A model generated the notes under the pieces. That model was not told the origin of the DNA, did not search any database, and worked only from the letters and a program-made list of their open reading frames with translations. Source: Octopus vulgaris (lineage: Eukaryota). Taken from it: a DNA stretch of 64,000 nt. This document shows, one piece after another, positions 3,001-55,225 of this stretch (the stretch's first letter is position 1; each line of letters starts with the position of its first letter). Both the position numbers and the translations under genes were made by a program. Location: positions 59,644,001-59,708,000 of the forward strand of contig OX597828.1 in NCBI GenBank assembly GCA_951406725.2. Reading direction: 5' to 3'.

Positions 3001-4223
3001 TATTGAGGTTTATAAGTTAGTATAGGAATGTGTATAAGTCGTGGGTCTGTGGTTTACGTGTGTGTATTTGTGTGTGAATGTTTAGGTTAGGGGGATTGCT
3101 ATATAGGTTTGTTATAGAGTATAGCAAAGGGAGATTTTACCGTTATATGTTTTTAAGAGTTTTGGTTTATCATGGTTTTTTTAGGGAATTCGTGGTAATT
3201 TGTCTTTTTTCGATGTTGGTTGTTTTATTACATTGTTTCATTCATAATTTTTGAGTGGTGTTAGTTTTGCCACGTGAATATTATTTTTAATTCCATTTAT
3301 TCCATTTCTCCATTCATTAATTTAAAGATGTTCGTTTCCAGAGCGGTTATACTTTTTATATGTTAAGTTCCTTGGTAAAGTTATTTTGTTTGGTGTATAT
3401 GTTGAGGCTTATATGTACTTGTGGGTGTGTGTGAGTGGGGTGGGTGTTTGTATTTGTTATGGGTGTGTGGTTTACGTGTGTGTATTTGTGTGTGAATGTA
3501 TAGGTTAAAGGGATTGCTATATAAGTATGTTATAGTGTTTAGTAAAGGGAGGTTTTATCATTTCTGTTTTGTGAGTTTTAGGTTATCATGGTAGTTTTAT
3601 AAAAGAATCCATTCATAATTTTTGTGTTTATTTGTCTGTGTGGGGCTGAGTGGGTTTTTGGAGTATATGTTGAGGTTTATATGTATGTATTGGTATGTGT
3701 AAGTGGTGTGGGTATTTGTATATGTCGTGGGTGTGTGGTTTACGTGTGTGTATTTGTGTGTGAATGTTTAGGTTAGGGGGATTGCTATATAGGTATGTTA
3801 TAGAGTTTAGTAAAGGGAGATTTTATCATTATATGTTTTTATGAGTTTTGGTTTATCATGGTAGGTTTGTTAAGGAATTCGTAGTAATTTGTGTCTATTT
3901 GCGATGTCTGTTGTTTTATTGCATTGTTTCATTCATAATTTTTAAGTAGTGTTCGTTTTACCAAGTGAATATAATTTTTAATTCCATTTATTCCATTTCT
4001 CCGTTCATAATTTTGAGTGATGTCCGTTTTCTAGAGCGTGAATGTGGGTTGTATGTGTGTGTGTGTGGGAGTATGAATAAGTATTGTGTTGAAGTATTTA
4101 GCTATTTTATTTATTTATAGTTGCCTAGACGTTTTTATGTGTATGTATAGGGATATATATATAGGTGTGTGATTTAGTGTATGTGGTTATTTATAATTAG
4201 GTATTTGTGTATGGGTGTATATA
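1..4223. repeat. Long inverted repeat: arms 1-1010 and 3215-4223, 2.2-kb spacer; the left arm runs off the window start
   Basis: 1-10 tatatacacc is the reverse complement of 4214-4223, and 1001-1010 aacaaccaac matches from 3215. Spot checks along the arms showed only one substitution and one 1-nt indel. Confidence 0.95.
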
Positions 4224-4671
4224 TAGTTTATTATAATATTATTATTTTTTTGTTTTGTTTTATATTTTATATTTTATATTTTATATTTAATTGTTGATAG
4301 GTTTATTTTAGTTTATATATTGTTTATATATTGATTATATATGGATTATATTTAGGTTATATATGGATTATATATTTATATTCTTTCATTCATACTTTAA
4401 TTATTTTAAAATTATTATTTTTATTTTTTAAATATTGATATTTTAGATTGGAAGTCCACCTGAAGATTGTCGATCAAGACAAGAAACGATTGTAGTGGTG
4501 GTTTTTTTGACTATTTATTAAAATTTTATGTATTGATTAAGTCTTTCCTTGTTTGTTTTGCAAAATAGTGGTTTTGTCTCTAATAATATTTTATAATATT
4601 TTACTATAAAATTGGATTTAATCCTAAATCTGATTTTTTTCCCTGTAAATTTGGATTTATTCCCTAATATT

Positions 4672-4675
<4 letters not shown>
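1011..4675 (+). mobile_element. Non-coding, strand-skewed, internally repetitive element ending in a hammerhead, a tail and (TA)n; probably a Penelope-like non-autonomous element
   Basis: GT-rich repeat sub-units recur at ~2385-2590, 2960-3400, 3400-3620 and 3625-4040. Hammerhead at 4456-4498, terminal ccctaatattt followed by (TA)n(TG)n, and an inverted copy of the 3' part at its 5' side. Confidence 0.6.
4456..4498 (+). ncRNA. Minimal type-I hammerhead ribozyme, canonical core
   Basis: ccac-CTGAAGA-ttgtc(gatcaa)gacaa-GAAA-cgattg-TA-gtgg. Stem I ccac/gtgg, 5-bp stem II, quasi-palindromic stem III acgattgt; predicted cleavage after GUA (4494). Confidence 0.88.
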
Positions 4676-4744
<69 letters not shown>

Positions 4745-4819
4745 TATGTATTATGTATAATGTGTATGTATATGCATATGTATGTATATATATATATATA
4801 TATATATATTGTTTTTTTT

Positions 4820-5034
4820 GTACTTGTTTCAGTCATTTGACTGCGGCCATGCTGGAGCACCGCCTTTAGAGTGGTGAAAGAGTACAGCAGGGATCACCAC
4901 CTCCTGCCGGAGCCTCGTGGAGCTATTAGGTGTTTTCGCTCAATAAACACACACAACGCACGGTCTGGGAATCGAAACCGCGATCCTCCGACCGCCAGTC
5001 CGCTGCCCTAACCACTAGGCCATTGCGCCTCCAC
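4820..5034 (-). mobile_element. tRNA-derived SINE
   Basis: Minus strand gtggaggcgcaaTGGCCTAGTGGttaggg...GGTTTCGATTCCC gives A/B-box-like motifs; a homologous copy lies at 58465-58680. Confidence 0.8.
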
Positions 5035-5099
5035 ATATATATATACCGGAGTAAACACATGATTGTGAAACAAGGTGGAAAAAGGAGTACTCAAATACC

Positions 5100-5780
5100 A
5101 GTGTTAGAGTCAATAATATCGAATTGTGTAAAACTGCAATTATTCTTATAGCTAATACATTTAAACCACTCTATGACCGACTTACTATTCTTCCAAATTC
5201 TCAAGTCTACTTCACTATCTAACTTAGTTAAAATACGGTCCAAAATATTTTTGCTAATAATGCCTATCTCAGTTTTAGCCGGATTTATCAATCTACATTT
5301 GGGGTTTCTATTAAAATTGGCTTTATGGTCTTTTAGTGTAATAAAAGCTGGTCGTGGGGAAAGATATTCAATCCTATCACTAATCTTAAGATTGTTAGCT
5401 ATTCCTCTATCTTCCAAATTCACCTCTTTGTATATATTTGTGTTATCTTTTTTTGTATGTATCTGTGACACTATTCGAAATCAGGCGCTTATAAACGTCC
5501 TTATCAAGTGCATATAAGTTCCTTGTCTTATCAGAATTAACGAAGATCTTATTCGAGTTGTTAATCTCCTTAATTTTTTCTTTCATATTTCTCTGTAATT
5601 GGTTGCTATATTTGCGGAATTTAATTTTCCTTAATAAGTTCGAAAAGGTCTTTCTCGAAGGCTTCTAATTCCGGAATAGGTGGTGGATTTAAGGTGGTGG
5701 ATTTAAATCTGGGAGATTTAAGGTCCAATCAAACAAGTCCATTTTTTTAAGGTGTAGCGTTTGTAATAGTCTGGATAGAA
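5100..5780 (-). pseudogene. Penelope-like reverse transcriptase fragment (broken, truncated at RT motif A)
   Basis: ORF 5091-5471 contains AFITLKDHK..F...PKCRLINPAKTEIGIISK.ILD....W.N...VI.WF......F..FDI.D, typical of PLE RT N-terminal motifs up to the first catalytic Asp. Confidence 0.75.
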
Positions 5781-5809
5781 TTGACATATCGGTTCCATTC
5801 TAGCAAAAA

Positions 5810-5847
5810 CTGTCCGATGAACGGCAACGGGAAACTCAGAGTAACAG
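5810..5847 (+). ncRNA. Minimal hammerhead motif, CCGAUGA core variant
   Basis: ctgt-CCGATGA-acggcaacgg-GAAA-ctcagag-TA-acag. Stem I ctgt/acag, stem III actc/gagt, GUA site; stem II is weak. Confidence 0.7.
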
Positions 5848-5874
5848 GTTTTGTTGAATTTTCTGCTGCTTTAA

Positions 5875-5919
<45 letters not shown>

Positions 5920-8443: not shown

Positions 8444-8556
<113 letters not shown>

Positions 8557-8656
8557 TAAAAACGGTAAGATAACAAAAGAAAGAAAGAGACCTCAATATT
8601 ATGTAAATAGAGGAAATTTATCTATAAAATAATATGTTACATTACTCAATAGTCAA

Positions 8657-8715
8657 GATAAAACTGAGTTTCAGATGCCGAAGTGGAAATCCACAACACC
8701 ATCTCTTCGGTTATC
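8657..8715 (-). ncRNA. Hammerhead motif (mirror copy), CCGAAGA core
   Basis: Exact reverse complement of 8717-8775. Confidence 0.65.
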
Positions 8716-8716
8716 T

Positions 8717-8775
8717 GATAACCGAAGAGATGGTGTTGTGGATTTCCACTTCGGCATCTGAAACTCAGTTTTATC
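8717..8775 (+). ncRNA. Hammerhead motif, CCGAAGA core, extended stem II
   Basis: gataa-CCGAAGA-gatg...gtgg(attt)ccac...catc-t-GAAA-ctcag-TT-ttatc. Stem I gataa/ttatc, GUU site. Confidence 0.65.
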
Positions 8776-8825
8776 TTGACTATTGAGTAATGTAACATAT
8801 TATTTTATAGATATATATATATATG

Positions 8826-11157: not shown

Positions 11158-11255
11158 TACGTATACTTTGATACTTTGATACTTTGATAGGTTTCGGCCA
11201 TTATTGGCCCAGGCCATGTCTAACTTAATAGCACCACCTGGTGAAGTCTTTCAAG

Positions 11256-14200
11256 TCAGAATTTGGGCACTATGGCCCACTCAAGTAGAGAGTTATTGTT
11301 TACAGAGACATATCCAGGTGTAGGGGGTTTATCCGGGATTTCTTGAAGGAATCTGTCCAAAGACTTCTTGAACCCTATAGGGTCAGTTTCTGTTTTAATG
11401 TGTTTTGGTGTAATGTTAAAGAGAGCGGGGCCAATTGAGGTGAAATAATTGTGCCGTATTGTTGTTATGAGATGAGAGTGCGATTTTTGTTTTGGGCGGA
11501 TGGCACGGGGCCCAAGCCTTGGATGTACCTTAAAGGTGATGCCAACATCATTTGGGCAATGCTGATGGAATATTTTCCACATCATGCAGATGATGTAGCG
11601 CTCACGACGACGTTGGAGAGAATAGAGTTTTAGCTTTTCTAGCCGACCCCAATAGTCGAGGCCTGTCATGCCATCTATCTTTTTTGTGATTGCCCTTTGA
11701 GGTGCTTCAACTTTTATGATACCTTGTATTGTGTGGGGAGACCACAGTGGACAACAGTATTCAAGGTGGGGTCGGGCAAAATTGGAGAAGAGAAGGATAA
11801 TGGTGTGGATATCTCTCGGCTGGAAAGTTCTGAGAATCCAGGAACACATTCTGCGGGCCATGTCAACTTTGGTGTTTATATGAGTGGCCCAGCTTACGTT
11901 GTTGTCCACAATTACTCCCAAGTCTCTGATGTTGTTGGACGCCGCGAGAGTTTCACCTGAAGGAAGGGAGTATGGGAGTTTCAGGGCATCCTCTTTTCCA
12001 AAGTGGATTAGCTCAAATTTATCCTCGTTCAGCAGCATATTGTTTTTTTCTGCCCATTGGATAACAGCCAGTAGATCTGACTGAAGGCATGTCCGGTCAC
12101 TCGCCTCATTTATGACCTTCTGTAGCTTGGAGTCATCTGCAAAGATTTTTATGTTGCTGTGCTTGATGATGTCATTAATGTCATTAATGTAAATGATGAA
12201 AAGAAGTGGGCCCAGCACAGTGCCTTGCGGAACGCCACTACTGACTTTGGCTGGGCTTGATTTTACCCCTTCAACTACAACATGTTGAGATCTGTCTGTC
12301 AGGAAACACTTAATCCATTTCAGTAACTTTCCAGAGACACCAATGTTGGATAGTTTTTTCAATAGGATCTTGTGATCGACCCTGTCGAAGGCCTTACTGA
12401 AATCAAGGTAGATGACATCGGTGTTGGAGCCCTCTCCCAAAGCTCTCAAAATGTCCTCAAAGTGATGCAGGAGCTGCGTTAGGCAGTCCCTTCCATTACG
12501 GAACCCATGTTGGTTGGAGATCAGCCGTCTGTTGCTTTCCAGAAATTGTTATTCGAGATCTCACCACCCTCTCAAATACCTTGATGATATGAGAGGTGAG
12601 TGAGATCGGACGGTAATTCACTGCAAGGGACTTGTTTCCCTTTTGAAAACTGGGACAACAGACTGGGACAGAAGGTTTTTTGGAATATAGCCAGCATCCA
12701 GTGAGTTTCTCCACAGATTAGCAAGGGGAGATGCAAGTTGGTGTCGACACACCTTCAGGACACAAGCAGGGAACCTATCGGGGCCTACTGCTGAATTGTG
12801 TTTTATTTCGTTTATCGCCGCTAAGACATCAGGGGCACTAAACGTTATGTCCGATATAGTGTGTTGGGGGTTGACATCACTGATACAGCCCAGATCGGCC
12901 ATATCAGGATTGCTGAAAATAGAGCAGTATTGTTTCTGCAGTATCTCGGCCATGGATTTGGCATTATCTTGGAGAGTGCCAGTTTCGTCAATTAGAGGGC
13001 CTACAGTGGAGACAGTGACCCTGCGTTTCCTCGCAAATGAAAAGAACACTTTGGGGTTGAGTTTGATTTTTTCAATGGCCCACTTCTCCTCAGCTGATCT
13101 TTGGTTATTGATGAGGGTCTTCATGCATTGTTGGAGGTTATATTTTTTGGATTCAAGCAGTGCGATAGCCGTCGAATGTGTGTGTTGCTGTTGGCAGTAC
13201 TTTAGTTTGTTAATTTTTTTGTTTGATCTTTTTATTTTTCTGATAATGGTTTTTCTGTTTTGGGGGATTCTGCACTTTTTGTTCACAGGTCTTGGTGGGG
13301 AGTGTTTTGCACATATGTCTGTGACGGTGTCTACAAAGATCTGCCAAGATGTTTTATGGTTGGTGGAGATGTGTGTATGTGTAAAGGACCAGTCAACATT
13401 TGATAGCTCGTTCCTGATTGCATCCCAGTTGGCTTTATGGAGATCCATGTTGTCAAATGGGTGGGCTGGAGGAAGGTCACTAGGATTAGCTTTCGGCTGG
13501 TGGAATTTCATGTTACAGAGAACCATGTCATGGTCTGAAAGAAGGGTTTTTTCCACTGTAACGTTATGTATAGTGTTAGTGTGGTTACTAAACACTAGGT
13601 CCAAAATGTTCTGATGTCTTGTTGGTGCAAGGACAAGTTGGGACAAGAAAAAACTCATTCGTAAAGTCGAAAAGTGACTCTGCTGCTTCTTTGTCAGCGG
13701 TTGAGGCGGGAGTGCTTGGTTTCAAACAGTTTGTAGTCCAGTCAACACAGGGTAGATTGAAGTCTCCCATCATGAGTATGTTGCTAGAATGGCACTGTTG
13801 AATAAAGCACTTAATGCTGTTGAGGCATTCTTTAAAGCACAGTATGGGTGTTTGGGGCGGCCTATAGAGCCCAATTACTGTCAGGTCATTGGCTTTGTTG
13901 TGCACGGTGACTGATTCACAGTAGCCATTGGAGAATATACTATTTCCATCTGCCGTAAATGAATCATGCAGGAAAATGGCAGTTCCACCCTTCCTCCTGC
14001 CGATACGATCCGCGCGGATGGTTGTGAAATTCTTCACTCTCACTTCGGCCTCCAAGTGGGAGTTGTCAAGGTGGGTCTCAGTGAGAATGAAGAAAGGGAT
14101 GTGGTATGAATGGTTACCAACCCAGTCTTCAATGAATTGGACCTTCCATTTTTGTGCATTGATGGAAGGGCTGACACCTTGTGCATTGAGTAGGAATGTG

Positions 14201-14289
14201 GAGGTTAGTGTAGTGGCTGGGTTTGACTGTTGCAGGGGGCTTGGATTTTTTGTGTGTGTTAGTGGCAGCAATGTGGGGAATTGGTGCAC
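11256..14289 (-). pseudogene. LINE ORF2: apurinic-like endonuclease plus reverse transcriptase, three small frameshifts
   Basis: APE motifs LLNAQG, LTETHL, GLYRPP, GDFNLP, ILDLVF, LSDH. RT motifs [42 protein letters not shown]. Frameshifts near 13650 (+1 in a homopolymer), 12642 (-1 in a homopolymer) and 12548 (-2). Confidence 0.92.
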
Positions 14290-15482
14290 TGGGGTAATAG
14301 CATAGGATGGTGTTGAGTGATGGCTAGAATGTTTTTGTGTATCTCTTTTGCCATGTTCAACATGGCTAAAAAAGAATTTTCCTGCTTAGGGAGCAGTTTT
14401 TGGCTGGAGGTGTGGTTGCACTGTTGGATAGCGTTGTAGTTTCCACTTTTGTTGTTGTTGTTTTTGTGTCTTCCTGAAAAGACTGGACCAGCATTACTGC
14501 AGCATGGTGTGTTTCTATTTTTATTGTTATTCAGGTTTGTGTGTTGGCTTGAGGCCCCGTTTCTGTTTGTGCGTCGGGTCCCTGGAAGATGAGTGAAGGG
14601 ACAGTCACTCAGTAGACATGTTCTCTCACGTTGGGAATACCGGCAGATTTTGGGACTCCGAGTTGTGTGTGTTTTGAATTTCGATTTACTATTTGGTGGT
14701 GTTGATGTTATTGTGGGATGCGTGCTTTGGCCTTGGCCGGTAGTGCGTCTAGTGCCGGGTAGATGCGTGAAGATGCAGTCACTATTTGTGCAGAGTCTCT
14801 GGCGCAGTGAATAGCGGCATATTTGGGGATTTCTTGTTTGTGCCGTGGGGGGCGCATTCTGCTTCCTATGTTTCTTTAAGTTTTTGTTACTGCAGTAGTA
14901 TTGAGGTGGTGATGTGGGGGAAGAGGGCAGTGGTTTCTTATTTGGTTTTCTGTCGGTATTTTTGGTGATAGAAGACGATAGTGGCAGCGGTGGTGATGAT
15001 GACGATGATAATTGTGGTGGTTGCTGTGAGAGCGGTGAAAAGATACTGGCATTTAGTGAATCGTCTAGTAAGCTAGAGTTGAGGAGTGGCTGTTGTTGTT
15101 CTTGTTGCTGTGGCTGTTGTTGTTCTTGTTGTGCCTGACCGATGTCAGGGTCAGCCATTGTGCTGGGAACCAGGAGTGGCTCATTCTGTTGTTGTTGTGG
15201 CTGCTGATTTTCTAGCTGTTGTTGTTCTTGAACTGTGAAAATATGTAGAAGCTTTTCATAATGGCCTCTTATCAGTTTGAAAGATACTTCGATATGTTTC
15301 AACTTGCTACGAATCTGTTTGACGGATCGTGTGTTGACCACTTGTGATGTTTTTTCGGCAATCTCATTCAAACACAAGACATTTAGATTTTCTGTTTGGG
15401 AAAGAGAGAGCCATGTGTTTATTAAAACATCAATTTCGTTATCAGACCAATTTCGTCTGTTGCAGGCCTGCAAGTTAGTCAT
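14259..15482 (-). CDS. LINE ORF1 protein (407 aa): Myb/SANT-like N-terminus, Q/S/P-rich linker, two CCCH zinc fingers
   Basis: NWSDNEIDVLINTW...IAEK...RSVKQIRSKL resembles a trihelix Myb/SANT. CRYSLRQRLCTNSDCIFTH and CRYSQRERTCLLSDCPFTH are C-x8-C-x4-C-x3-H. The ORF overlaps the ORF2 start by 31 nt. Confidence 0.85.
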   Translation of the reverse strand: MTNLQACNRRNWSDNEIDVLINTWLSLSQTENLNVLCLNEIAEKTSQVVNTRSVKQIRSKLKHIEVSFKLIRGHYEKLLHIFTVQEQQQLENQQPQQQQNEPLLVPSTMADPDIGQAQQEQQQPQQQEQQQPLLNSSLLDDSLNASIFSPLSQQPPQLSSSSSPPLPLSSSITKNTDRKPNKKPLPSSPTSPPQYYCSNKNLKKHRKQNAPPTAQTRNPQICRYSLRQRLCTNSDCIFTHLPGTRRTTGQGQSTHPTITSTPPNSKSKFKTHTTRSPKICRYSQRERTCLLSDCPFTHLPGTRRTNRNGASSQHTNLNNNKNRNTPCCSNAGPVFSGRHKNNNNKSGNYNAIQQCNHTSSQKLLPKQENSFLAMLNMAKEIHKNILAITQHHPMLLPQCTNSPHCCH

Positions 15483-15819
15483 GTTTGTTTTTCTTTTGTT
15501 TGTTTTCCTTTTGATTTTTGAAAATATATATATTCTTTCTTGGGAGTTAAAGAAGTGTATATATATATAAATGTTCTCTCTTAAGGGTGTGAGTTTTTGA
15601 TTATTTGGTTGTTTGAGGATATTAAAAGAAAAACAGTTGTATATAACAATTTGTAGTTAAATGAAAACGTACTTACGGGTTTGTAGGCAAACACGTGGTT
15701 ACAAATATATATATATTTAAGGTCAGTTAGTTTTGAAGCTGTGTAGCTTGCTACTGACTTGGGAGAGAAACAAATAGACGTCCGTCCACTTCAACAGTTA
15801 ATCCACGTATATATATATA

Positions 15820-16078: not shown

Positions 16079-16083
16079 GTATA

Positions 16084-18204
16084 TACTTTGATACTTTGAT
16101 AGGTTTCGGCCATTATTGGCCCAGGCCATGTCTAACTTAATAGCACCACCTGGTGAAGTCTTTCAAGTCAGAATTTGGGCACTATGGCCCACTCAAGTAG
16201 AGAGTTATTGTTTACAGAGACATATCCGGGTGTAGGGGGTTTATCCGGGATTTCTTGAAGGAATCTGTCCAAAGACTTCTTGAACCCTATAGGGTCAGTT
16301 TCTGTTTTAATGTGTTTTGGTGTAATGTTAAAGAGAGCGGGGCCAATTGAGGTGAAATAATTGTGCCGTATTGTTGTTATGAGATGAGAGTGCGATTTTT
16401 GTTTTGGGCGGATGGCACGGGGCCCAAGCCTTGGATGTACCTTAAAGGTGATGCCAACATCATTTGGGCAATGCTGATGGAATATTTTCCACATCATGCA
16501 GATGATGTAGCGCTCACGACGACGTTGGAGAGAATAGAGTTTTAGCTTTTCTAGTCGACCCCAATAGTCGAGGCCTGTCATGCCATCTATCTTTTTTGTG
16601 ATTGCCCTTTGAGGTGCTTCAACTTTTATGATACCTTGTATTGTGTGGGGAGACCACAGTGGACAACAGTATTCAAGGTGGGGTCGGGCAAAAGTGGAGA
16701 AGAGGAGGATAATGGTGTGGATATCTCTCGACTGGAAAGTTCTGAGAATCCAGGAACACATTCTGCGGGCCATGTCAACTTTGGTGTTTATATGAGTGGC
16801 CCAGCTTACGTTGTTGTCCACAATTACTCCCAAGTCTCTGATGTTGTTGGACGCCGCGAGAGTTTCACCTGAAGGAAGGGAGTATGGGAGTTTCAGGGCA
16901 TCCTCTTTTCCAAAGTGGATTAGCTCAAATTTATCCTCGTTCAGCAGCATATTGTTTTTTTCTGCCCATTGGATAACAGCCAGTAGATCTGACTGAAGGC
17001 ATGTCCGGTCACTCGCCTCATTTATGACCTTCTGTAGCTTGGAGTCATCTGCAAAGATTTTTATGTTGCTGTGCTTGATGATGTCATTAATGTCATTAAT
17101 GTAAATGATGAAAAGAAGTGGGCCCAGCACAGTGCCTTGCGGAACGCCACTACTGACTTTGGCTGGGCTTGATTTTACCCCTTCAACTACAACATGTTGA
17201 GATCTGTCTGTCAGGAAACACTTAATCCATTTCAGTAACTTTCCAGAGACACCAATGTTGGATAGTTTTTTCAATAGGATCTTGTGATCGACCCTGTCGA
17301 AGGCCTTACTGAAATCAAGGTAGATGACATCAGTGTTGGAGCCCTCTCCCAAAGCTCTCAAAATGTCCTCAAAGTGATGCAGGAGCTGCGTTAGGCAGTC
17401 CCTTCCATTACGGAACCCATGTTGGTTGGAGATCAGCCGTCTGTTGCTTTCCAGAAATTGGGTTATTTGAGATCTCACCACCCTCTCAAATACCTTGATG
17501 ATATGAGAGGTGAGTGAGATCGGACGGTAATTCACTGCAAGGGACTTGTTTCCCTTTTTGAAAACTGGGACAACAGACTGGGACAGAAGGTTTTTTGGAA
17601 TATAGCCAGCATCCAGTGAGTTTCTCCACAGATTAGCAAGGGGAGATGCAAGTTGGTGTCGACACACCTTCAGGACACAAGCAGGGAACCTATCGGGGCC
17701 TACTGCTGAATTGTGTTTTATTTCGTTTATCGCCGCTAAGACATCAGGGGCACTAAACGTTATGTCCGATATAGTGTGTTGGGGGTTGACATCACTGATA
17801 CAGCCCAGATCGGCCATATCAGGATTGCTGAAAACAGAGCAGTATTGTTTCTGCAGTATCTCGGCCATGGATTTGGCATTATCTTGGAGAGTGCCAGTTT
17901 CGTCAATTAGAGGGCCTACAGTGGAGACAGTGACCCTGCGTTTCCTCGCAAATGAAAAGAACACTTTGGGGTTGAGTTTGATTTTTTCAATGGCCCACTT
18001 CTCCTCAGCTGATCTTTGGTTATTGATGAGGGACTTCATGCATTGTTGGAGGTTATATTTTTTGGATTCAAGCAGTGCGATAGCCGTCGAATGTGTGTGT
18101 TGCTGTTGGCAGTACTTTAGTTTGTTAATTTTTTTGTTTGTTCTTTTTATTTTTCTGATAATGGTTTTTCTGTTTTGGGGGATTCTGCACTTTTTGTTAA
18201 CAGG
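16084..18204 (-). mobile_element. 5'-truncated copy (copy 2) of the same LINE with uninterrupted RT frame
   Basis: Nearly identical to 11172-13290, with a (TATCAAAG)2 tail and an open frame 16168-18204. The N-terminal IY part of the 752-aa ORF is (TA)n read-through. Confidence 0.95.
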
Positions 18205-18240: not shown

Positions 18241-18370
<130 letters not shown>

Positions 18371-18390
18371 GTATATATATATATATATAT

Positions 18391-18860
<470 letters not shown>

Positions 18861-18893
18861 TGTATATATATACCTATATATAAGTATATATAT

Positions 18894-19372
18894 ATGGCTT
18901 CCCTTTGCAAATACTGATAGGGCACAGAAAGTGTGTCTATAGCCAACTGGAGGAGATGTCTTGCTGCGGCTAAAAACTACAGTAGCATCCACCCTTAGAG
19001 GTTAGCCATATTCAAATGGCATATTTACATCACGATGTGTTTCTGCTACTGTTGATAACTCACTCTGATATTTATCATTGTTTGATTTCACTTTTTTCAA
19101 TATCAGTGTCACCGAACACTGGAAAAAGTATATGTATTTGTAAAGAGAACCTCCTTCCTATCGACAACTGTGATTGTCACACGCTGATGATAGGTCAATA
19201 CCTTGAAACTTGGGTCCGTGTGTATCATAAGTTGAAGACGGGAAGGATGGCTTCCCTTTGCAAATACTGATAGGGCACAGAAAGTGTGTCTATAGCCAGC
19301 TGGAGGAGATGTCTTCCTGGGGCTAAAAACTACAGTAGCATCCACCCTTAGGGGTTAGCCATATTTACATCA

Positions 19373-19374
<2 letters not shown>
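18894..19374 (+). mobile_element. Retrozyme-like partial tandem repeat, 353-bp unit with one hammerhead
   Basis: ggcttccctttgcaaatac... at 18896 recurs at 19249, with a hammerhead at 19179-19221. Second family member at 25451-25756; (TA)n flanks. Confidence 0.82.
19179..19221 (+). ncRNA. Minimal type-I hammerhead ribozyme, canonical CUGAUGA core
   Basis: acacg-CTGATGA-t-aggt(caat)acct-t-GAAA-cttggg-TC-cgtgt. 5-bp stem I, GUC site (19216). Confidence 0.88.
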
Positions 19375-19432
<58 letters not shown>

Positions 19433-19434
<2 letters not shown>

Positions 19435-19640
19435 AATTAAGGACTGAACACGAAAAGTGGACAGTCAACATGCTAGATATAGACGTCAAATCGCCATTCT
19501 AGCATATTGACTGTCCACTTTTCGTGTTCAGTCCTTAATTGGTATATACAAATATTTAATCTTCGGGTTCTTTTTTTAATATGCTAGACCACTGTTTTTA
19601 ATTGATAAATATTGATTTCTACCCTTAATTAATTTTATAT
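19433..19640 (+). mobile_element. Fold-back non-coding element in (TA)n, no hammerhead
   Basis: 45-bp arms 19433-19477 and 19498-19542 (one mismatch); tail ends acccttaattaatt. Confidence 0.85.
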
Positions 19641-19664
19641 TATATATATATATATATATATATA

Positions 19665-19915
19665 CAAGGAAAGAAATAAGAATGAAAAAGAAGATGAAAA
19701 TAACACAGATTTGTTTTACGAGACGAAAGAATATATTTAAATCGTCATAGTAAAAGTTTTATACAATATTATACAAAATAATTTTTTTCCTCTAGAAGAA
19801 AAACCTTCTTTTTGTATAATACTGTATAATACTTTTGCCATGACGATTTAAATATATTCTTTCCTCTCTAAAAACAAATCTTCTGTCGCTTTTTCATCTT
19901 ATTTTTTTCCTAATA
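19665..19915. repeat. Older, degenerate inverted repeat (~120-bp arms, centre ~19795)
   Basis: gaaagaatatatttaaatcgtcat pairs with atgacgatttaaatatattctttc, and gatttgtttta with taaaaacaaatc. Confidence 0.8.
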
Positions 19916-19954
19916 TATTCAACCACGTATAATCACCAACAATACTTTCTCACT

Positions 19955-19988
<34 letters not shown>

Positions 19989-19989
<1 letters not shown>

Positions 19990-20450
19990 ATTGGGCATAT
20001 AAAAAAGTTCGTAGCGTTTTTCAACCGGTGATATTTAATCACGTGATCTGTTTTATCACGTAACAGGAACATATGATTCATATATATTTTCGTTATTTAT
20101 TGCTCCTTTATTTCCAGACAGTTAAGAACGCTGCACAAACAGCAAAGAAAATATGTGCTGTTTACGGAGGTGGTGTCATAGCTGAAAGTACTGTTTGTAA
20201 ATGGCTTGGTAGGTTTGGAATCAAATATTTTGTCTTGGAAGAACGTGAGCGTTGGCAGGCCTACATTATTTGATAATGAACAGATCGTGACTTTAATAAA
20301 ATGTAATTCATGTTACACATCGCGAGATATTTCGAACAATCTCCTTGTATTCATGTAAGCCTTATAAAGCATTTAAAAAATCAAGTTTTTTTTATATAAC
20401 TTAACGGAAAAAGAAACTTAATAGAGTACATCTCCATATGCGATTCATAT
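19989..20450 (+). mobile_element. mariner-type transposon 5' remnant (HTH region)
   Basis: FRYLLLLYFQ..KNAAQTAKKICAVYG..VIAESTVCKW..RF....F.LEE.ER resembles the mariner N-terminal HTH; TA-tattggg terminus. Confidence 0.75.
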
Positions 20451-21527
20451 GTTGATCCAGCCAGACATGTTTACATTCCGTCCGTCAAGGACGTTTTCCA
20501 CATCTTTGCGCTAACTCACTGTCTGCCTTGATAGCTGAAAAGGCTATTCTTTTAGTATTGTATACTTATAATTATTAACTCCAGTTATTGTAGAGCTGTT
20601 TGGCATTTTCTATTGTGTATAACGTTATTTTGTCCTGTTCCCGCAGACATTCGTCAGCTTTTTCCTGTAGCTCTATGATCTAGCGCTCTCATTAGATAGC
20701 AGTGGTCTTGGTTTAACTAGCGCGAAACCCCTATGACATCTTGGATACCAACTAATGAGAAAATCCCCTGCGAATGTTCTTTGAATTGTGTTTTTGTCTT
20801 CCTTTCCTGTCCGTTATGTTTTCGTCCAGTTTTCGTCTATTTTCCCCGATTAGTTTCTTTTTGCAATTAAAGTTGACCAACCTCCCTGAATAAATACAGA
20901 AAATAAACGCGAACTGAATTGCAAGCGCCAGTAAGAAGAATCATTTGGCTTTAAAATGTGACTGGCACCATATCTTATGCGAATAACACTCTTTACCTCA
21001 TTCAACAAAATATGAGACGATTCTCACTGAACAAATTCTGTTGAAGGTCAGGTTATCGCAGTACAAAATACAACTGGCACATTTATTGTTTTTATAAATC
21101 CAAGTTGTTTATCGTTTCCTTCAGGCTTAAAAGGCAAATGATTCCACAGAGCCGCACGATAATTCGTTATTTGGAAGTTTACCAATTATTTTTACTTATC
21201 CTTTCTTAACAGTTGCGAAAACAATATTAATATATAAATCTTTGCCAATAAATAAACTCGTATAAAAATTATTACTTCGCCAACGAATGATCGTCCTTAC
21301 CATAGCTTGACCAGTGGAAAAGCCTCCGTCTAAATATGAACGATACATAATTTTATGCTGTTTTCGTCATCATCTCTGAAAGGGACTGAGCGGTTGCGGT
21401 TACACGGTATTAGATTATACCTAAATAACTATTTAGGGTTGCTCGTAGCTAAAATAGTGCTGCTACTAAGTTGCTGTTGCCAGAGTAATTTCGTGTGATA
21501 TGACTTTTTCACTACTGTCAATTCACA

Positions 21528-21828
21528 GTACTCTTTTACTTGCTTCAGTTATTTGACTGTGGCCATGCTGGAGCACTGCCTTTAGTCGAGCAAATCGACC
21601 TCAGGACTTATTCTTTGTAAGCCTAGTACTTATTCTATCGGCCTCTTTTGCCGAACCGCTAATGTTACGGGGACGTAAACATACCAGTATCGGTTGTCAA
21701 ACGATGTTGGAGGCGGGGACAAACATAGACACACAAACTTATACACACGCATACATATACATATACATATATACGACGGGCTTCTTTCAGTTTCCGTCTA
21801 CCAAATCCACTTACAAGGCTTCGGTCGG
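21528..21828 (-). mobile_element. SINE
   Basis: Reverse-complement homology to 7140-7420. Confidence 0.78.
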
Positions 21829-22467
21829 AACTTATGCTAATAATATTCACATAAGTTTTAATTAACATCAATATTATCAATAAAAAAGTCCATTGCCCTT
21901 ATATTACTCTTGTGTATATCATTCGTTGTCACTTGCTTAAACGAACAAGATACTGAGTAGTTAATTATTACTTGATCAGATATCCTGTGGCAGATTAGTC
22001 GTTAGATAATTACGTCAGGTTAAAATTAGCAAGTATCTTGATGGGTTACAATCAATTATTCACGAATTTCTTAAAGCGATCAATGTTATTGTAAACAGAA
22101 TTTCTTTTAAAAAAAGTTTTAAAAAAGGCGAATAAAACAAAATGAAATAAATGAAATTATATAAAATATCAAGAATCATGCTTAGTTTGCTATCAGATAA
22201 CCAAAGCGAGTAGACTGTATGAATATGATACAGTAGCATATTCAACACACGAAGTGATAACGAACAAGGGTTATCTAAGGAAATTATTTGGGATGTATAA
22301 CTTAACATCGAAAACAACGGAATTCGTTGAAATGTAGTGCAACTTGTCACATTGATACGAACGTATTTCACAAGCTCAAGATGTGCCTAAGTATGCACTT
22401 ATACAAGCATATTACTTTGTAATTCTTGCATATATTCAACACACACACAGAGACTCTCCCCCTGTTC

Positions 22468-22530
<63 letters not shown>

Positions 22531-22534
<4 letters not shown>

Positions 22535-22860
22535 TAGTAATGGTATGACAACAAAAGAATGAATTAGACCTCGATATTATGTAAATAGAAGAATTTATCT
22601 GTAAAGTAATATGTGACAATTATTCGGTTGCCATAATATAATTCCGAGTTTCGGATGTCGGGGGGGGGGGAAATCTGCTCCGGCATCTCGTCAGTTATTA
22701 AGGCAATCAAAAATACTATGAAAATGACCGTTAAACAAAGGGAAATTACTATGTGATTGACCGTTATTAAGACAAAAGAACTATTAGAAAGACCGTTAAA
22801 TAAGGGGGAAAAAAACCGAAGGGGAGAAAGTAAAAAACTAAAAAAGTAAAAATGCCCATA
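22531..22860 (-). mobile_element. Penelope-type terminal repeat remnant, family of 8552-8813
   Basis: Alignable blocks acaaaagaa..gacctc.atattatgtaaataga and gagtttc.gatg.cg; (TA)n at its 3' end. Confidence 0.75.
22635..22700 (-). ncRNA. Hammerhead motif, CUGACGA core, decayed stem I/III
   Basis: Minus strand ataa-CTGACGA-gatgccgg...ccgacatc-c-GAAACTCGGAATT. Confidence 0.6.
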
Positions 22861-23095
22861 GAAATCGCGTATGTGCGCATGTACATACTTACACATGCGC
22901 GCACGCACACACACACACGTACATGTATGTACCTATATGGATATGTTCAGTCACGCTCGCGTGAAACACATACATGTGCACCCACACATACGCCTATATA
23001 TGCACATATATATGCAGCCATACATGTACACATTTATATATCCGCACATACACGCGTGCACACACACACTCGCGTGAAACACATGCATGTACACC

Positions 23096-23147
<52 letters not shown>

Positions 23148-23215
23148 TTTACGAAGACAGGTGGTGTACAAAACAAACAGATGTATTAGTATAACGCTCA
23201 GGAATAGAAAAAAGA

Positions 23216-23251
23216 CTTTTACGTTTCGATCCTACGCTCTTCTACAGAAAG
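23216..23251 (-). ncRNA. Hammerhead-like motif with CUGUAGA core, family of 55342
   Basis: Minus strand cttt-CTGTAGA-a-gagc(gtag)gatc-GAAAC-GTA-aaag; the flank tatta.t..acgctcagga is shared with 55310-55326. Confidence 0.55.
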
Positions 23252-23539
23252 GGACACAGAAAAAAACAAGGAGAGGAAAAAAAAGGAGATATATATATAT
23301 ACCCGCACACACACGATGTACATATATATATATCTGCATACATGCGCGCGCACCCACACACGTGCACATACCCATACGCGCACAATTATATTCAAATACA
23401 AGATTAACCAGTTATTTAACAAGGCTGATAGTTGTGGCTCCAAAGTTGGAGATAGTATACATCATATTTTCGATAAATAGTCTCTCACGCCAAATACGCG
23501 ACTTGTCGCTTGGAATGTGTGTGTGTATGTATGTATGTA

Positions 23540-23812
23540 TGTATGTATGTATTTATGTGGTGCTCCTGTGGTGATTGCACCACAGGAGCAGGGACAGCCG
23601 AGGAGGGACGGATTAGGTCAGCAGAGCAGAAACGCCAGATACGGAAAGCCAGAGCTGCCTGCACCAGTAGCACGGCCGCTACCCACTTCTGCCCCACCTG
23701 TGAGTGGGGCTTCCTTGCCCGGATTGGCCTCACCAGCCACCTCCGGTCTCACGGCGGCAGTTCCACCAGATGATGTCAGTGGTCATCTTCGAACCCGAAG
23801 GACGAACATTAT
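23540..23812 (+). mobile_element. RTE-clade LINE 3' end fragment with C2H2 finger
   Basis: AEQKRQIRKAR...HFCPTCEWGFLARIGLTSHLRSH is typical of the RTE ORF C-terminus. Confidence 0.8.
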
Positions 23813-23859
23813 TATGCATTTATGTAACGAAAAAAATGAAGTAAGGTTCCTTCCCCAGT

Positions 23860-24085
23860 CATATAGACACACAGGGCCGGTTTCCCGGTTTCCATTACGT
23901 ACATATTCCCCACCTGGACGGGAGATCAGCCTGTCGCAGAATTACTCATTTTTGCCAGGTGAGTAGACTGGATTAACGTGAAAAGAAGTGTTTTGCTCAA
24001 GAACACAACATACCGCCCGATTCAGGAAAAGGAAACCACAGTCTTACTATCATAAATACAACACCCTAACCACTAAACAACTAAA
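23860..24085 (-). mobile_element. Diverged tRNA-derived SINE
   Basis: Minus-strand head ttagtggttagggtgttg... followed by gttgtgttcttgagcaaaacactt. Confidence 0.55.
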
Positions 24086-24725
24086 CCACGCACCTTCACT
24101 ATATAATAAAACATGGCAAATATATCAGCATAGGACAGACAGAAACCAAGAAAACAAAATTTTATCTCAGTAACAACAAACGGATGGTTTTGCATACATG
24201 CCTACTCAGCCGTGATGCACTCACAGAAATATATTTTAATTAGCTATATAGCTAAACCCATTCGTAAACAACCTCTCACAAAACAACCCTTACCATATTA
24301 GAAACTTACACGTAATAGAAACGAAACTATGCGACATCACCAGTTCATCAAGTTATAACCAAGTTCAAAACACACAAACCGAACCGAATTTGTAAGAGAT
24401 ATAAACACAAAAGTGGATAAAAAAAAAAGTTAGCTGAACAACCAATAAAAAGGCGAGAAAAACAGCAGCAATAAATAAATACGAATGCAAGACAAATGAA
24501 CACAAGCACCTGACGGAACAGACTCAGACACCAACAGACATAAATACACCACTAATACCGCGTTGTAACTGTTTTCTGTGAAGATCACCGTGGCATAAAG
24601 CCTGAATCGCGAGACAAACATTCAGATTAAATACATCTCTCTCTCTCTCCCTCTCTCCCCCTCTCTCTCGTTCTCTGTCTGTATATACATATATACACAA
24701 ATACATATATATATGTATATATGTA

Positions 24726-24763
<38 letters not shown>

Positions 24764-24767
24764 CGTA

Positions 24768-24834
<67 letters not shown>

Positions 24835-25221
24835 TTATATATATATATAATAGATATATAGATAGCGCTTACGCAACATTTCTAGATTACACAAACACAC
24901 ACACACAAACACACACACACACACAACACACACACACACACACACACATATTTATATGTACATACTTCATATTTTTCTATCTTCCGTTTTAGTCCATTTT
25001 TTTCCATGCTTGCCATTCTTGGCACTAAACGTTATTCCTTTTTCGAGGTAAAGAATAACGCATTCACACGCAATAAAATATGTATGTGTATACGCCTGCA
25101 TAGATACAGACATATAAATAAACATGGATACGTGTGATTGTATGTGTGTGTGCGTGTGTGTGTATGTGTGTTAGTATGTGTGTGTTTGTGTGTGTGTCCG
25201 CATGAGGTTGATGGAAATACC

Positions 25222-25445
25222 AAGCTTAAAATGCTGCTGGGCTCGATTCGTTCGACTAAAACCCTTCAAAGTTGTGCCCCAGTATTGCCGCTATCTAACT
25301 GCTACAAGTAAATGATAAAAGGTTATAAAGGCGTGGCTGTGTAATAATAAGTTTGCTTACTAATCACATGGTTCTGCGTTCAATCTCACTGCATGGCACC
25401 TTCGGCAGATGTCTTCTACATTAGCCTTGTGCCTTGTGAGTGGAT
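25222..25445 (+). mobile_element. SINE fragments (tail piece then head piece)
   Basis: Homology to 47645-48090; the head ends at ccttgtgagtgga, where the hammerhead element begins. Confidence 0.6.
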
Positions 25446-25450
25446 ATATA

Positions 25451-25486
25451 CTCGATTTCTGGGTATTGACCTGTCATCGGCGTGTG
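25451..25486 (-). ncRNA. Inverted, truncated hammerhead copy (CCGAUGA)
   Basis: Minus strand cacacg-CCGATGA-c-aggt(caat)accc-a-GAAA-tcgag; the 3' strand of stem I is missing. Confidence 0.6.
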
Positions 25487-25505
25487 GCAATCACACGCCG
25501 ATTGT

Positions 25506-25550
25506 CACACACCGATGACGGGTCAATACCCAGAAACTCGAGTCCGTGTG
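25506..25550 (+). ncRNA. Minimal hammerhead, CCGAUGA core, palindromic stem III
   Basis: cacaca-CCGATGA-c-gggt(caat)accc-a-GAA-ACTCGAGT-C-cgtgtg; GUC site at 25544. Confidence 0.8.
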
Positions 25551-26669
25551 TATCATAAGTTGAAGACGGGAAGGATGGTTTCCCTTTGCAAATACTGATA
25601 GGGCACAGAAAGTGCGTCTATAGCCAGCTGGAGAAGGTGTCCTCCTGGGGCTACAAACTACAGTAGCATCCACCAATAGAGGTTAACCGTATTTAAATGG
25701 TAAATATACGTCACAATGTGTTGTAGCTACTGTTTATAACTCACTCTGAGATTTATTATATATATATATATATATAATATGTGAATGTATGTATATGTAT
25801 GTACAGCATATATATATATAATACACAGACGCACGTACACGTACGCTCGCCAGACACCATGTGACCAGTGATTTTATAAGATATATGATAATAATCATAA
25901 AAATCCTTTCATTAATCCTCAACTATCTTCGTGATGATATGCATAGTAATAGGGGCGATTTTTCTTTGAAACAATTTGTTTATATTTTATATCATAATAT
26001 TCATAGGTCATAGTCAAAATGATATCACTATTATCTAATCTAAGAGAAGCTAAAAAGTCTTTACATTACGAAAGAAAATGAGGAATGAAAACTATAAAAG
26101 AAAAAGAAAGCTAATGAGAAAGAGCGAATGAAGGAATTAAGAAAGAATCGAATTTGCATTGTACGGTCAATTAAAAACTTACGACTCTATGAAAGCATTA
26201 CCACTTACATCCATTGGCTCTGTTGTTCCCCCGAGGTTATTACAAATACATTATTTAACTGGTGCAATTGTCTTAAAAAATAATCACTATAAGTTGGTGA
26301 TTTCGATTGGTTTTCCAAACAACTGCGTCTAGAGAAAACAGAAAACAGTTTCTATTTCATTAACTTATCGGTTTCCGTGATTTATACATACTTTTCAATA
26401 CTTAGTCACGTATATAGATTACAATCAACAATTTTTTTCCAATTTCGTACCTTCACGATCAGTAGAAGAAATGATGACAAGGTTAATAACTGAATATTTA
26501 TAATTTTGATTACATTTATAAAATATTATTTTACATTTCTTCACATTAATAACATATAATTCTCGGATTATTATGTAAATTTCCAATGCCTAGGAATTTA
26601 GTTATCAGAATATATATTTCTTAAAATTATTTAAATTCGTGGTCAATGCCGTCAATATTATGCTACTAT

Positions 26670-54105: not shown

Positions 54106-55193
54106 TTCTGGGTGTGACATCTGCCTTGGCCGTCTATGGCAAGAGTGGAGATGCATATCGCTCACCCGACTTTCAAGATCTGCTTGGCAAGAGGTGAGAC
54201 GTGTGAATGAGTTGGCCGCTCTCAACGCTCAGCAAACAGTTAAACTTTGAGTGAATCATTACACTTGAAAGAATTTTTGACTTGAAATGAATAAAAATTG
54301 GCATTAGATGAGAAAATTAGTACTGAAATCTTAAGATAATCTTCCTTTGATTTGACAGGCGTACTAGGTTTTCGGCGACAGATACAACAAAAATATTTTC
54401 AACATTTTGATTGCGTTAACTTTGTGTTATGATTTTCTCTATAATTTCTCCTCAAAATTGTAATCCTAAAAGTTTAAAATTATGTCTTTTTACGTTAACA
54501 AAAATGAAGTTAAATTCAATGTTCCAAGTAATTTTTTTTATTTTTTATTTCAGCTTTGGAAACGTTGATGGAATGCGATTCGATTTGCACGTGAAAGCAG
54601 AAAAGATAAAATTCAAAAATACATCTTGAGTAAACTATTGACTTGTGAACCTCTCTCTCTCTCTTTCTCTCTTTCTCTATCTATCCTCTCTCCCTCTCTC
54701 AATCCCCCCTCACACGCTCTCTCTGCTGACTTTGCCCCAATATGTATATCCTACTCATTCTAGCTATGTCATCTTGACATTGGCTTTCTAAGGCTATATA
54801 TACTGTTTTCTATTGTGCTTTTCATAATCTTTAATGCCTTAACTGAGAAAGATATTGTGTAAGAGATGAATTCATTTGTCTCTTTTGCAAAATAATGTGT
54901 ATTAAATGAATTAAAATATATAAGTATTTGATTTGAATTCATTAATATATGGTAAATGATAATTTAAAAGCTAGCCGGTCCTTACTTGTAAAAGGGTCCT
55001 ATAGCAAGGATTTGGAGTGCATTATTCTAACGAAAACGAGTCACAAATTTCTAAAAGCGTGCATCGTGTCTTGGCATAAGGCAAAATCACGAAATCATCG
55101 TTAACCGGCTAGAGGAAATGTCTTCTGGAGCTTAAAAAATCGAAGTAAAGTCTATTCGAACAGACAGCCATGTGGAAGTGCTTACGAACATTG

Positions 55194-55225
<32 letters not shown>

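Follow-up and report, generated by a model that had tools for sequence, protein, structure and literature searches.

What kind of element left the insertion at 18894–19373 of the 64-kb stretch of Octopus vulgaris DNA analyzed here (the window, to which all coordinates refer), and by what route did it arrive? A sequence-only reading of the locus had described a 353-bp repeat period, and the period holds: compared with itself, the insertion (copy 1) gave 118 matches out of 126 at offset 353 and 23–37 at other offsets from 340 to 364; 18894–19012 and 19247–19365 are identical at 115 of 119 positions. Copy 1 consists of a full unit at 18894–19246 (plus strand; GC 0.40), delimited by the offset comparison, and a partial second unit at 19247–19373 (plus strand), equivalent to 18894–19033 but lacking 13 nt across a small hairpin; it amounts to 1.4 units. 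The full unit starts 30 nt downstream of the position expected for an upstream cut site, and the second one, ending at 19373 (equivalent to 19033), stops ∼140 nt short of where a second hammerhead would begin. On the 5′ side copy 1 adjoins a (TA)n tract at 18745–18893, with a 2-nt AT microhomology at the junction; on the 3′ side the sequence continues as (TA)n at 19374–19433. The 353-bp unit has no ORF of at least 100 codons, and it lies within the size and composition range of non-LTR retrozymes (150–450 bp, GC <50%, non-coding).

The hammerhead seen by the earlier reading is also there. A type I motif occupies 19170–19228 (plus strand); in a manual fold all its pairs are allowed. Helix I has 6 bp with an outer helix of 5 bp; the core is at 19184–19190 (C3 at 19184); helix II, 4 bp on a U.U mismatch, takes up 19192–19203; helix III, 2 bp with a tetraloop, takes up 19208–19215; the predicted cut falls after C17 at 19216. 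A hammerhead descriptor requiring a helix I of at least 6 bp matched the window twice and none of 60 shuffles; relaxed to 4 bp, it matched 5 times vs a shuffle mean of 0.017. The type I fold is far beyond chance. Rfam returned no hammerhead match in the window at the gathering score and none across 18300–26000 up to E = 10. Taken alone, the hammerhead stretches (61–81 nt) fold no better than their shuffles (z of –1.63, 0.51, –1.08 and –1.49), and in copy 1 the active fold (–8.4 kcal/mol) lies 5.7 kcal/mol above the local minimum (–14.1 kcal/mol).

The claim of one hammerhead per unit did not survive, as the 1.4-unit locus contains a single hammerhead and its second unit stops at 19373. Where the definition of a non-LTR retrozyme asks for two complete hammerheads, and the two-unit criterion of a 2026 preprint (bioRxiv 10.64898/2026.07.22.740005) for two units, copy 1 has one hammerhead; therefore, the locus itself is unable to release a monomer or a circle, and it is not to be classed as an active retrozyme.

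The window contains further hammerhead-like motifs at 4460, 55372 (minus strand) and 58274. A (TA)n-embedded stretch at 8554–8810 includes a 99.5% palindrome (8622–8810) with head-to-head hammerhead-like motifs, a U4C core and a long helix II; its fold-back center is at the 5′ base of helix I, like that of a second copy of the 353-bp unit (copy 2, below). A related stretch is found at 22539–22660. Apart from those at 4460 and 19184, most hammerhead motifs of the window have C at core position 4; this C may be a lineage-wide core variant.

Folded as a circle, the unit reaches –105.2 kcal/mol vs –78.7 ± 4.2 kcal/mol for shuffles (z = –6.3; 0 of 100 shuffles as low), while controls (39 tiles out of 109 free of microsatellites) range in z between –2.7 and +1.6. 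The predicted structure includes a rod of ∼39 pairs at 19130–19271 (plus strand), in which 19130–19174 pairs with 19224–19271, extending helix I, with a mean pair probability of 0.96 in both helices. In the model such a rod would hold both ends of a cut monomer together; it is predicted to form in one linear copy, too. To see how variation falls on this fold we took 40 listed contig variant rows (42 more are unlisted) and left out 8 with a low DNA share; of the resulting 32, 9 preserve or re-create a pair, 9 disrupt one and 14 concern unpaired or mismatched positions. Among the 33 differences of copy 2, 8 keep or restore a pair and 7 break one. Two-sided pair changes are three (19192/19203, 19005/19020 and 19107/19118); the first is the paired change in stem II that had been noticed from the sequence, A-U at 19192/19203 of copy 1 and G-C at 25520/25531 of copy 2. 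Covariation support for the fold is modest.

Is the repeat unique to this locus, which would speak against a retrozyme? The stretch or a part of it was present in 20 of 24 public runs, with at least half of its words in 5 (11 studies, four organism labels). Four of these runs, all made up of contigs, were aligned to the unit rotated to 19005–19357 at 80% likeness; the DNA and RNA labels of these runs are guesses. The aligned records number 5389 (X5) and 3223 (X3) in the DNA-guessed runs, which belong to two organism labels and two studies, and 153 (X12) and 49 (X13) in the RNA-guessed runs; contigs, by their nature, cannot show ends, strand or level. All 30 of 30 bins of the unit are covered in both DNA-guessed runs. 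Diverged contigs span spacer, hammerhead and core (19076–19234, 19081–19226, 19101–19357, 19116–19339, 19116–19260 and 19120–19269), 4 rows wrap from 19355–57 to 19005–06, and the strand changes in 3 of 12 joint rows. Among the 32 pieces listed of 8900, the longest of 266 nt, none holds a whole unit or two hammerheads. The relatives, found in two organisms, follow the 353-nt order.

Scaling summed depth to the joint rows, whose median depth is 48 and 25, gives a ratio, to be read as an order of magnitude and not as a copy number, of ∼4000–5000 for hammerhead and spacer, 42 000–49 000 for the core and 180–550 at the lowest points. The family has a high copy number, with thousands of diverged relatives in the same order. 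The core, ∼100 nt at 19236–19342 (plus strand) as delimited by contig depth, is common to other hammerhead-bearing subfamilies; in either DNA-guessed run its depth is roughly tenfold that of the hammerhead 5′ half. The loose ends listed (24 of 467) fall at 19236–19343 and mostly read as other subfamilies, in which a hammerhead 3′ strand, related or different, precedes the core and the sequence beyond it has diverged. The most conserved part of the core, 19257–19267, contains an octamer-like word; its bases also pair within the predicted rod. Newt satellite 2 is reported to have an snRNA-type promoter, according to a passage citing that work (PMC2220036), and on account of the octamer-like word a promoter of this type may be considered for the core. 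The 64-kb window has no tRNA genes, and a bacterial promoter scan of it, irrelevant here, was empty. A weak, diverged relative of the core (55102–55137, E = 0.007) lies within 55030–55195, a stretch that ends in (TA)n and has a possible hammerhead 3′ half upstream of this relative.

Family contigs are present in the RNA-guessed runs, where contigs are uninformative on expression or circles; X12 has zero depth at 19005–19052, and wrap joints are unlisted in X12 and X13, which proves nothing. The start and end listing of the aligned records contains no shared start or end position. An approximately two-fold step of depth near 19214–19217 was considered as a set of 5′ ends at the cut site and rejected, as the private letters of copy 1 at 19211 and 19213 would clip the alignments there. 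Pattern scans of metagenome contigs and viral contigs gave 0 matches. The 353-nt repeat is a real feature, and its family is a further case of a known kind. We found no report of a cephalopod retrozyme in the literature searched, with Repbase, Dfam and most subscription journals outside the search, so that the family may already have an entry under a different name; the main text of PMC13282606 mentions neither ‘ribozyme’ nor ‘retrozyme’.

The same private letters of copy 1 bear on helix III. In the two DNA-guessed runs the family has C at 19211 in 99% and 99% of depth and A at 19213 in 98% and 93% of depth; with these letters helix III is perfectly palindromic in 93–99% of depth, and copy 1 has lost the palindrome of loop III. 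The self-duplex of helix III has –10.7 kcal/mol for the family palindrome vs –4.2 kcal/mol for copy 1.

Copy 2 is built differently from copy 1. It opens with an inverted arm at 25450–25496 (minus strand), the reverse complement of 19168–19215, and continues with a forward arm at 25500–25759 (plus strand), equivalent to 19172 through 19078 + 353, which contains a hammerhead, has 90% and 86% identity to the unit and ends in (TA)n. The forward hammerhead has a U4C core, a palindromic helix III and a broken first pair of helix I (25511/25545). The inverted arm carries U4C as well; with U4C on both arms, the variant was probably already in the template. The sequence-only reading had let copy 2 start in a different register and had judged the two registers consistent with circular permutation; as forward homology begins at 25500, after a PLE-type inverted arm, this argument no longer holds.

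The inverted arm has its outer end one base before the predicted cut, and the helix III palindrome coincides with it. A uniformly placed end would fall within one base of the cut site with a chance of about 1 in 100, in what is a single post-hoc case; as a counter-case, the short arm of the palindrome 8622–8810 ends ∼40 nt past the cut triplet. By eye, 25493–25502 duplicates 10 nt from the 5′ side of the hammerhead, which suggests a template jump at the fold-back. The 3′ ends of the two copies, at 19033 and 19078, are 45 nt apart; for these two ends a PLE ‘tail’ of 30–40 bp, produced by two fixed starts of reverse transcription, fits as well as a circle does. Both copies have (TA)n at all their outer ends, a short stretch in the case of the left end of copy 2, and share AT-type microhomology with it at every outer junction; such flanks would mask any target-site duplication, which in non-LTR retrozymes (elements with no LTR, PBS or PPT) is long where it occurs. 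Directly to the left of copy 2, 25330–25445 is a truncated SINE-like stretch, a putative octopus tRNA-derived SINE; like the microsatellite load, it gives the DNA a seemingly octopus-like character.

The anatomy of these insertions, with a partial tandem in copy 1, an inverted 5′ arm in copy 2 and a (TA)n target, is of PLE type, each of the three being a hallmark of PLEs (PMC8557442). In work with a purified PLE protein, both strands of AT-rich DNA were cut and the protein started at a position internal to the RNA (PMC11167929); Hydra elements insert into (TA)n and bear hammerheads (PMC8557442). As neither copy has an RT or GIY-YIG endonuclease ORF, neither is an autonomous PLE. The window does have a PLE RT remnant (5094–5480, minus strand) with a motif resembling Hydra-clade sequences by eye; Pfam gave no match for 5094–5480, and an Atlas search returned unnamed clusters and DUF8422. 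No sequence link was found between this remnant and the 353-nt unit, so that a Hydra-clade helper is a candidate, and the window shows no homology of the unit to a PLE ORF or pLTR. The minus-strand RT remnant lies in a region (5040–5878) that also has an oppositely oriented hammerhead-like motif (U4C core, ∼5814) adjoining (TA)n.

We therefore read copy 1 as a 1.4-unit insertion of a 353-nt non-coding hammerhead repeat, likely a non-autonomous PLE passenger of the non-LTR retrozyme type, and put the probability of this reading at roughly 0.6. The observations under it are the period, the hammerhead motif, the lack of a long ORF, the (TA)n flanks, the inverted arm of copy 2 and the abundant relatives; the retrozyme type is assigned because of unit size, 40% GC, canonical hammerhead, self-pairing and the family-wide 353-nt order. 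That the family is non-autonomous and mobilized by PLEs we regard as very probable; that it additionally makes abundant circles has odds slightly in its favor, the circle being a prediction for the 353-nt family and not for the copy 1 locus. Membership in the non-LTR retrozymes is provisional: the family would work like a non-LTR retrozyme and be moved like a PLE passenger. The class named by the earlier reading was probably right. Of its proposal that a retrozyme family was copied from a circular or multimeric template, the multicopy family and a template longer than one unit stand, and the argument from registers falls.

The cycle could run as follows. Loci with at least two units would be transcribed; hammerheads, likely dimerized via the palindromic helix III, would excise 353-nt monomers; a host ligase would join the monomer ends, held by the extended helix I, into circles. 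The steps of cutting, ligation and circle formation are taken from the animal retrozymes of PMC7229834. A PLE protein, possibly of a (TA)n-targeting clade such as Hydra, would nick (TA)n, and reverse transcription, beginning at an internal point of the RNA past the 3′ side of the hammerhead and exceeding one unit, would yield copy 1; copy 2 would result from folding back, or from being primed a second time, at the hammerhead. Both copies appear to be dead-end offspring. Because copy 1 reads through an intact hammerhead and is longer than one unit, it must have been copied from a circle or from an uncut multimer rather than from a cut linear monomer.

The uncut multimer could be all there is. 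In this alternative, which we hold to be unlikely while taking it seriously, a non-autonomous PLE passenger moves solely via linear read-through multimers, with a weak or vestigial hammerhead and no stable circle. U4C, present in 50% and 24% of depth in the two DNA-guessed runs, reduces hammerhead activity in vitro (PMC3088659), and its presence on both arms of copy 2 indicates that a variant core was transposed; positions 10.1–11.1 of the hammerhead are unpaired. Selection on the ribozyme fold, which both the conserved helix III palindrome and the two-sided change in stem II argue for, does not agree with a vestigial hammerhead, and neither does an inverted arm that ends at the cut site. Reports from other systems point both ways: PLE insertion in vitro was unaffected by hammerhead mutants (PMC11167929) and 8 of 9 Xenopus dimers were uncleaved (bioRxiv 10.64898/2026.07.22.740005), while circles accumulate in all three animals tested in PMC7229834. 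The excess depth of the core over the hammerhead 5′ half also fits linear multimers.

Position 19078/79 raises another possibility. If copy 1 were two truncated cDNAs joined near this point, the unit would be the pLTR of a longer coding PLE, copy 2 an ordinary 5′-truncated inverted insertion and the 353 bp a by-product. Copy 2 does end exactly at the equivalent of 19078, the site of the supposed joint, all insertion marks are of PLE type, and among the 32 pieces listed of 8900 none bridges 19078/79 with 31 letters on each side (24 of 467 loose ends are listed). We consider this improbable. Depth in X5 runs from 83k at 19065 through 142k at 19069, 298k at 19077–88 and 256k at 19092 to 47k at 19107, and X3 has the same shape. 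This single peak over 19065–19100, at the hammerhead level, spans the end point of copy 2 and requires numerous short contigs across 19078/79; contigs that differ from the window at 19069 reach 35 letters from their end. Moreover, none of the 24 loose ends listed lies at 19005–19235, the fractions running on into unlike sequence are 0 and 0.01 in the two DNA-guessed runs, the unit has no 100-codon ORF, and a search of the PLE supplement of PMC8557442 for four motifs of the unit found none. A local 125-bp DNA duplication at copy 1, independent of any RNA life cycle, would suit the unstable (TA)n tracts and palindromes of the surroundings, and is largely excluded and highly improbable, as relatives in two organisms join spacer, hammerhead and core in the same order and both ends of copy 1 adjoin (TA)n with AT microhomology.

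How does the 353-nt family, read as a PLE-moved repeat of retrozyme type, compare with known systems? Units of metazoan non-LTR retrozymes have 220–245 bp in coral, 350–390 bp in mussel and 331/353 bp in axolotl (PMC7229834). Our family shares with them unit size, GC <50%, non-coding nature, high copy number, strong predicted self-pairing and a canonical type I hammerhead with a short palindromic helix III; axolotl HHR_Amex2 (PMC7229834) and copy 1 both have U.U at the base of helix II. Unlike them, the copy 1 locus has 1.4 units and one hammerhead, cleavage and circles being predictions here; relative to the retrozymes described in PMC7229834, U4C is common, and PLE-type inversions and (TA)n sites occur. 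The canonical architecture (helix I of 6 bp, II of 4 bp, III of 1–2 bp, palindromic loop) is defined in PMC4209133; the minimal PLE hammerheads described there have a long helix II and a short helix I, in contrast to the canonical form with 4-bp helix II seen here.

With Hydra, Neptune and Naiad PLEs (PMC8557442, PMC11167929, PMC4209133) our copies have in common a partial tandem, an inverted 5′-truncated copy, a (TA)n target, variable 3′ ends and a hammerhead near the end; they differ in having no RT or GIY-YIG ORF. Non-autonomous Chlamys PLEs, such as MRC1 (PMC8557442), are likewise non-coding and inserted head-to-tail by PLE machinery; they are, however, green-algal and mostly without canonical hammerheads, as described in that source. 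The preprint cited above (bioRxiv 10.64898/2026.07.22.740005) proposes that non-LTR retrozymes derive from PLEs, from co-occurrence and pLTR trees; it covers 31 vertebrates, 3 insects and 1 anthozoan, with no mollusc among them. It offers the same model, PLE machinery moving pLTR-related hammerhead repeats with monomer offspring common; here the link to PLEs comes through insertion anatomy, and homology to a pLTR was found neither in the window nor in the PLE supplement of PMC8557442.

As animal retrozymes, including one from a mollusc, are known already, a further family is a modest addition. The value lies in the anatomy, with PLE insertion marks directly on retrozyme-type copies, beyond co-occurrence and pLTR trees. 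According to a 2020 review, retrozyme repeats are without a conserved motif pointing to a helper (PMC7761336); in contrast, the 353-nt family offers a candidate core. One could speculate, and we do so with considerable doubt, that the copies are fossil footprints of a retrozyme cycle and at the same time that the core is a helper-recognition signal. The inverted arm would halt at the cut because, in vivo, the PLE RT met or used an RNA end made by the ribozyme; the core of ∼100 nt would be a cis signal marking the passengers for a PLE protein that targets (TA)n, possibly of the Hydra clade, or for the host polymerase. If true, this would identify the helper behind an animal retrozyme and assign PLE hammerheads a function in transposition. 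As the copies number in the thousands, any good assembly allows insert ends to be tallied by their position relative to the cut, and so puts the hammerhead's part in PLE transposition within reach of a test.

The surroundings of copy 1 have their own repeats. Three more palindromic inserts occupy the (TA)n tracts around copy 1, at 18392–18638, 19433–19542 and 19685–19906, a pile-up of inverted insertions of PLE type. Two minus-strand LINE copies with RT domains (11171–15656 and 16083–18204), 99.3% identical, are each interrupted or capped by (TA)n; the longer one also has an AP-endonuclease domain and an upstream ORF. Finally, 1–1010 and 3215–4223 form an inverted repeat of 1 kb (99.8% identity), which itself contains repeats of ∼270 bp.
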